Below, piece by piece: positions 46,076-46,120 of a stretch of DNA of 64,000 bases. The notes under the pieces are model-generated. The model had not been told where the DNA came from and made no database searches. It was given only the letters and a program-made list of their open reading frames with translations. Numbering within the stretch: position 1 is the stretch's first letter; each line of letters starts with the position of its first letter. The DNA is from Candidatus Nomurabacteria bacterium (GTDB lineage Bacteria; Patescibacteriota; Minisyncoccia; Phycocordibacterales; UBA9973), in assembly GCA_023267195.1 (NCBI GenBank), contig JAHFNT010000004.1, forward strand, positions 603 to 64,602, read 5' to 3'. The translations under genes and the position numbers were made by a program.

Positions 46076-46120
46076 TCCACCCTCAAAATAAAAAGAGACT
46101 GATGGAAGCTCTTGTTCTTA
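46076..46120 (-). other. 42 bp insertion with in-frame TAA, flanked by 9 bp direct repeats (TTTTATTTT), splitting gyrB
   Basis: Minus strand ...gta ttt tat ttt AGA GAA TAA gaa caa gag ctt cca tca gtc tct ttt tat ttt gag ggt gga TTG.... Deleting one repeat plus the intervening sequence restores VFYFEGG, the conserved HFHYEGG block. Confidence 0.6.

Follow-up and report, generated by a model that had tools for sequence, protein, structure and literature searches.

A premature stop codon in gyrB of a Candidatus Nomurabacteria assembly differs by one base from an intact allele

Introduction

The gyrB gene examined here is interrupted by an in-frame stop codon, which raises the question of whether the GyrB protein is made in two pieces, whether the gene is a pseudogene or whether the assembly is at fault. 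A preliminary description of the window (by which we mean the whole 64 kb stretch of DNA that was analysed) listed all three outcomes and attributed the stop to a 42 bp insertion flanked by 9 bp direct repeats. The analysis reported here favours an artefact or a pseudogene and does not support an evolved split.

The interrupted gene and its family

The gyrB coding region lies on the minus strand at positions 44759..46831 and translates as 690 codons and a terminal TAG, broken at codon 238 by a TAA at 46118–46120 (minus strand). This is the only in-frame stop within the gene, and the base that creates it is 46119, which is an A on the minus strand and a T on the plus strand. The N-terminal open reading frame (46118..46831, minus strand) encodes 237 amino acids that make up the GHKL ATPase domain minus the β-strand with which it ends. 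The C-terminal open reading frame (44759..46075, minus strand) encodes 438 amino acids when read from a TTG at the Leu253 codon, and contains the transducer, the TOPRIM domain and the C-terminal domain. The list of open reading frames and the translation both place the two in the same frame, as had been described previously. The stop is flanked by identical codons (GAA-TAA-GAA). There are no in-frame start codons between the TAA and the TTG at 46075, which lies 42 nt after the stop and is the sole in-frame start codon within 60 nt past it. The SD-like GAGGGTGG motif noted in the preliminary description is seen 5 nt upstream of the TTG (46077–46084, minus strand), where it supplies the codons for the nearly invariant residues E250-G251-G252. 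A tblastn search found one copy of gyrB in the 64 kb window, in agreement with the earlier statement that the window has no second copy.

Apart from the open frame, the gene appears in all tested respects to be a member of the GyrB family. The closest public protein, P0001, has records for the Pfam domains PF02518 (HATPase_c), PF00204 (DNA_gyraseB), PF01751 (Toprim) and PF00986 (DNA_gyraseB_C) in that order, and GyrB chains in the PDB, from Escherichia coli and other solved structures, match at E = 1e-189. The translation contains the catalytic motifs, including the DxDxDG acidic cluster and the QTK loop (EGQTKAKLG). One uninterrupted polypeptide frame is lacking in the window and present in a sister assembly. 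We note that some sources label homologues of this protein 'topoisomerase IV subunit B'; neither gyrA nor parC was found among the large open reading frames of the window that were scanned.

From a collection of 5.8 billion proteins we retrieved 120 full-length GyrB sequences of 685–711 aa, which are 87–100% identical to the query over 98–100% of its length and whose source names are Candidatus Nomurabacteria, Paceibacterota or Parcubacteria. A scan of GTDB representatives, with one genome per species, gave 80 related loci, in 78 of which the junction could be placed; their source names include Nomura-, Kaiser-, Adler-, Zambryski-, Yonath-, Taylor- and Vogelbacteria. The protein of the window resembles the GyrB of Paceibacteria and Candidatus Nomurabacteria in its full set of GHKL ATPase, transducer, TOPRIM and C-terminal domains, in its 87–93% identity to proteins so named (100% to P0001) and in a shared stretch of about 21 extra residues before the FYFEGG strand. 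It differs from them at codon 238, which is TAA in the window and a leucine codon (TTA) in the intact allele. On these comparisons the gene would be an ordinary Paceibacteria (Nomurabacteria-like) gyrB with a one-base anomaly.

Comparison with an independent assembly

P0001 is an intact GyrB of 690 aa which is identical to the translation of the window except at residue 238, where it has leucine and the window has a stop. Its source is ENA ERZ27279942 (97 kb MEGAHIT contig k141_5458838). Alignment of the public sequence L001, from the same dataset, with window positions 43715–56831 (13,117 bp) gave one mismatch and no gaps. The sole mismatch is at 46119, so that the public contig reads TTA (Leu238) where the window reads TAA. 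L083, which takes in more of this contig, likewise has one mismatch, at 46119, in 14,981 bp. The remaining 2,072 bases of gyrB do not differ from those of the intact allele. The lesion is therefore a single substitution, TTA to TAA, with no indel.

Further contigs match the window at 100% (L088, from ERZ27279942 like L001 and L083, and L082, L086 and L087). Together with L001 and L083, the overlapping contigs cover window positions 30929–64000 (approximately 33 kb) and represent four datasets, namely ERZ27279942, ERZ27279977 and the Logan assemblies of SRR14366796 and SRR14366791, with no indels. Site 46119 itself is spanned by one independent assembly only, that of ERZ27279942; the contigs from ERZ27279977, SRR14366796 and SRR14366791 that were found through look-ups of the neighbouring genes match the window, and none of them reaches 46119. 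One ERZ27279977 contig (L084; k141_2142434) has a single mismatch to the window, located 6 nt from the contig start (window position 46500), and its last 18 bases are Illumina adapter sequence (AGATCGGAAGAGCACACG). Both features look like contig-end artefacts of a low-coverage sample.

Two MEGAHIT contigs of ERZ27279942 (97 and 44 kb) end within thrS at window positions 43715–43855, and they overlap there by exactly 141 bases, which is the k-mer size. Contigs of other datasets likewise end near 43715–43855 or within gyrB. Since the window bridges the junction at 43715–43855, the population must have been assembled differently, or better, to produce it. Taken as a whole, the matches indicate that the window represents a very clonal population which has been assembled several times.

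A 44-mer that spans the site and has N as its variable base gave no exact match for either allele in the genome and metagenome contig collections that were searched. Among 153 billion gene positions there was no exact counterpart of the 237-aa or the 438-aa fragment, and the window's thrS was also unmatched. Because the fragments and thrS are all unmatched, the window's own assembly is taken to be absent from that collection.

Origin of the stop codon

The position occupied by the stop is a leucine in all 120 of the closest GyrB proteins and in 65 of the 78 species genomes, the remainder having other sense codons. The leucine codons at the site (n = 65) are CTT (26), CTC (13), TTG (11), TTA (7), CTA (5) and CTG (3). 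Neither a stop nor a split was found at this site in any of the 120 proteins or 78 genomes.

We consider it probable that the TAA is a wrong base in this assembly, introduced either by a consensus or base-call error or by an alteration after sequencing. This assessment draws on rates and selection arguments rather than on reads. A single wrong base at 46119 would turn the TTA of Leu238 into TAA in the assembly, and in that case the organism itself would have a normal one-piece GyrB of 690 aa. About 4.6% of single substitutions in gyrB create a stop, and a random error would therefore land on one fairly often. Moreover, no neutral differences were found over 33 kb and four datasets and the sole change is a nonsense change, so that a random error fits better than divergence. 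The intact remainder of the gene gives no indication of decay or of adaptation.

There are nevertheless several points which argue against an assembly error. The site is covered by only one independent assembly. Apart from this base, the window agrees with short-read contigs over 33 kb without indels, so that its assembly is not noisy in general, and lone substitution errors are rare events in their own right. In addition, the context on the plus strand, CT[A>T]ATT, is neither a homopolymer nor a classic error motif. The locus has the appearance of a sporadic nonsense pseudogene or of a single-base error in a metagenome-assembled genome (MAG), in that a lone premature stop stands against an intact allele in another assembly. 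It differs from the artefactual gyrB genes of other assemblies, which have indel frameshifts, lie on noisy long-read contigs and have broken neighbours, whereas here there is a lone substitution in clean sequence. The preliminary description had also envisaged an artefact in which the 42 bp segment would be absent or variable in the reads; this does not agree with a lesion that consists of one base at 46119 and not of an indel.

We regard it as unlikely, though still deserving of serious attention, that the TAA is a genuine and very recent nonsense mutation of the population or of a sub-lineage picked up by the assembler, in which case it would be non-adaptive and probably deleterious, a nascent pseudogene or dead-end variant with point mutation as its sole mechanism. 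A single transversion suffices to turn TTA into TAA, the codon being one step from a stop, and the assembly is otherwise clean, with no indels and no other mismatches in 33 kb. Symbiotic bacteria of the CPR with small populations can carry deleterious alleles, which we count in favour of this reading. However, gyrase is an enzyme that is normally essential, and the window shows one gyrB only. There are no accompanying neutral differences across the 33 kb and four datasets, although neutral changes would be expected to outnumber one under such strong negative selection; of all changes, a strongly deleterious one has the poorest prospect of becoming the first majority difference. The absence of a stop here from every relative surveyed, and of both truncated products from the 153 billion gene positions, also weighs against a recent nonsense allele.

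Split or recoded GyrB

A third reading is that the gene is functional as it stands, either as a two-piece gyrase in which residues 1–237 associate non-covalently with a TTG-initiated product of residues 253–690, or through recoding, in which low-level readthrough or a short ribosomal hop across GAA-UAA-GAA gives a GyrB of nearly full length. We judge this to be very improbable. The SD-like GAGGGTGG is 5 nt before an in-frame TTG which is 42 nt past the stop, the break falls close to where the GHKL domain gives way to the transducer, and the codons on either side of the stop are identical; matched codons around a stop are a permissive context for tRNA hopping. However, the motif, the TTG and the flanking GAA codons are unchanged in the intact allele L001. 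Residues E250, G251, G252 and L253 are each at least 90% conserved, and since the GAGGGTGG motif and the TTG are dictated by these conserved EGGL residues, the motif provides no evidence of adaptation to a restart.

The structural consequences of a restart were considered using an AlphaFold2 model of the intact protein, which was built from a 65-sequence alignment and has a block-mean pLDDT of approximately 78–81 over residues 231–250. In this model residues 235–238 form a short helix within a loop, and residues 244–249, with the SFYF that aligns with HFHY of the E. coli enzyme, form the final strand in the sheet of the ATPase domain. Following a restart at L253, residues 238–252 would be in neither product, and with them would go the nearly invariant FYFEGG strand, which closes the ATPase sheet. 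GyrB without its ATPase domain, whether produced by proteolysis or by truncation, supports relaxation only, and ATP hydrolysis needs the QTK lysine of the transducer within the same assembly; we count both facts against a functional split. The use of TAA as the main terminator, with no suppressor tRNA in the window, also speaks against this third reading.

In an evolved split both products retain all structural elements and the split is conserved in relatives, whereas here residues 238–252 would be lost and none of the 120 proteins or 78 genomes is divided at this site. Programmed recoding is accompanied by conservation of the stop and its signals, and this stop is unique to the window. An established pseudogene would have several lesions or relaxed constraint, and here there is a single lesion. 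The gene cannot be placed in any class of topoisomerase gene with an evolved split or recoding: conservation of the interruption, by which such classes are defined, was looked for and is absent. It is highly doubtful that the TAA is the true majority allele and that the bacterium survives on a GyrB which is made in two pieces or is rescued, at a low level, by a hop or by readthrough.

There is a superficial likeness to the gp39/gp60/gp52 topoisomerase of phage T4 and the bypass in its gene 60, where a homologue of the type IIA B subunit is also interrupted by a stop. The matched codons of gene 60 have an apparent parallel here in GAA-TAA-GAA and in the two FYF motifs 42 nt apart. The T4 system has evolved a 50 nt gap, a stop directly after the take-off codon, a stem-loop and a nascent-peptide signal, all of them conserved, and its topoisomerase protein is split at a different place. 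In contrast, no relative shares the stop of the window and neither does the sister assembly, and between the two FYF repeats there is conserved coding sequence and not a gap.

A recurrent natural split was entertained when a second protein search, made with the central 233 aa, returned many GyrB fragments that start at the FYFEGG junction. This possibility was rejected. The two junction-start fragments that were inspected (L089 and L090) come from long-read contigs on which trmD, pheT and gyrB are all fragmented, which amounts to indel noise and counts against a functional split. Junction-start calls arise in addition because many relatives have a methionine just before the strand that can be used by gene callers. 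No fragment identical to those of the window was found in this second search, the output of which apparently consists of proteins of up to 408 aa. Literature searches returned nothing relevant on naturally split gyrB genes, on premature stops of gyrB in MAGs or on the sequencing runs concerned. In L089 (3324–5510) and L090 (3285–5359), both long-read contigs, gyrB is in three pieces, and in L026 (3001–5090), one of the 80 species representatives, it has a frameshift near residue 53. Disrupted gyrB genes are an occasional artefact of public assemblies, which we count in favour of an error in the window, and these cases supply a base rate for artefactual gyrB 'pseudogenes' in MAGs.

The supposed insertion

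The preliminary description ascribed the stop to an inserted segment, and its model, a foreign insert of 33 bp with a 9 bp target-site duplication or alternatively a 42 bp indel artefact, retains practically no probability. The supposed insert corresponds to the 14 codons V232–V245 (46097..46138, minus strand), which have no counterpart in E. coli GyrB. The sequence TTTTATTTT does occur twice in gyrB, 42 bp apart: the first copy (46127–46135, minus strand) supplies the codons for F233-Y234-F235 and the second (46085–46093, minus strand) those for F247-Y248-F249, in the strand that aligns with HFHY of the E. coli enzyme. Identical 9-mers at this spacing, and the VFYFEGG junction similar to that of E. 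coli which is obtained on removing one repeat and the spacer, are the two observations in favour of an insertion.

The comparison with the gyrB genes of close relatives that had been proposed as a check went against an insertion. The whole segment is carried by 120 of the 120 closest GyrB proteins and by all 78 of the related species genomes, and the intact allele holds the same 42 bp except for one base. Using HMMER with the E. coli structures (PDB entries 7z9c and 6rks), Paceibacteria GyrB was found to have approximately 21 extra residues between DKRDGK and HFHYEGG, and E. coli GyrB shows one 14-residue gap exactly at VFYFRELEQELPSV. The 42 bp segment is thus a native part of Paceibacteria GyrB that is conserved throughout the clade. 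Deleting it gives an E. coli-like junction because the E. coli protein is without this lineage-specific stretch. In other words, the VFYFEGG junction does result from the deletion as described, but what is removed is not an insert.

The repeats are also accounted for without an insertion. Both copies of TTTTATTTT encode Phe-Tyr-Phe in frame with the preferred codons of this gene, in which TTT (17) is used more than TTC (11) and TAT (17) more than TAC (6). With this codon usage the chance that two FYF tripeptides share one 9-mer is approximately 0.17, and the two 9-mers are identical in nine of the 78 related genomes, compared with the 17% or so expected. The same 9-mer occurs 22 times in the window. 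The 9 bp repeats are coincident codons, with no target-site duplication. Identical 9 bp direct repeats that bracket a short segment resemble the footprint of an IS or MITE with its target-site duplication; the difference here is that the segment is native coding sequence found in all relatives and that the repeats are coincident codons. The insertion model is refuted by these comparisons. An ancient tandem duplication of the 14 codons was also considered and rejected on reading the sequence, in which the two units share only FYF.

Stop-codon usage in the window

Reassignment of the stop codon, which had previously been called unlikely, can be set aside in view of the use of TAA as the main terminator (it ends 32 of 49 long open reading frames, the others ending in TAG, ten, and TGA, seven), the use of all three stops and the lack of a suppressor tRNA among the tRNAs of the window, which are those for Asn, Ala and Thr only. 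No other in-frame breaks were recognized in the window. The other adjacent open reading frames that share a frame have their own start codon each, and two of these pairs match separate public gene calls; we read all such pairs as separate genes, their homologues not having been compared.

The base following the 32 natural TAA terminators is A in 18 cases, T in 11 and C in three, and it is never G, while the internal stop of gyrB reads TAAG. The absence of G after TAA may only reflect the A+T-rich character of the intergenic DNA.

The lineage-specific expansion and the neighbourhood of gyrB

The lineage-specific expansion of about 21 residues falls within GyrB residues ∼218–246 (window positions ∼46094–46180, minus strand) and has the form ...KKGLNxxDVFYFRELxxELPSV. 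It directly precedes the final strand of the GHKL domain and is predicted by the AlphaFold2 model to consist of a loop and a short helix. This expansion is a possible signature indel of the clade.

A G+C-rich island is present at window positions 46960–47300, between the start of gyrB (46831) and pheS (47445 or 47559). Its G+C content is 55–68% in a genome of about 40%. The minus strand of the island has a predicted fold of −157 kcal mol−1, with z = −4.7 relative to shuffled sequences, and the plus strand has z = −2.2. The island has no Rfam match at E ≤ 1 and contains no tRNA or tmRNA, and blastn did not find it in the 3 kb gyrB flanks of the 80 relatives. A gene caller places an open reading frame of 76 aa in it, which has no Pfam match. 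It is possible that the island is an unannotated structured RNA, for which we regard it as a candidate.

Just upstream of pheS, at window positions 47323–47433, there is a stretch of about 100 nt of DNA that is 78–87% conserved in four related genomes (L002, L008, L027 and L069) and that gives only weak, hairpin-like noise in Rfam. It could be a leader of pheS or the true 5′ end of the gene. The start of pheS is itself ambiguous, with an open reading frame from a TTG at 47445 and an ENA gene call of 378 aa from 47559. Three other proteins have no Pfam match: that of a 199-aa open reading frame between thrS and gyrB (44148–44747, plus strand), a 1,280-aa protein which occupies 62212–64000 of the minus strand and continues past the right end of the window (4867–8709 of L082), and a 700-aa protein that adjoins the latter.

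Implications

There is nothing novel in the gyrB stop, which carries little biological weight. Should it prove to be an error, gyrase in this organism is normal and the practical lesson is one of annotation hygiene: the gene should not be labelled as a pseudogene or a split gene, or counted against the completeness or quality of the genome, without a check of the reads. A reader with the E. coli protein in mind can mistake the expansion of Paceibacteria GyrB for an insertion, and in A+T-rich genomes repeated short peptide motifs yield exact DNA repeats that mimic target-site duplications. If, on the other hand, the TAA were fixed, the organism would provide a natural test of the tolerance of gyrase to a break at the junction between its ATPase and transducer domains. 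If it were both true and tolerated, an essential type IIA topoisomerase would have become newly split at this domain boundary.
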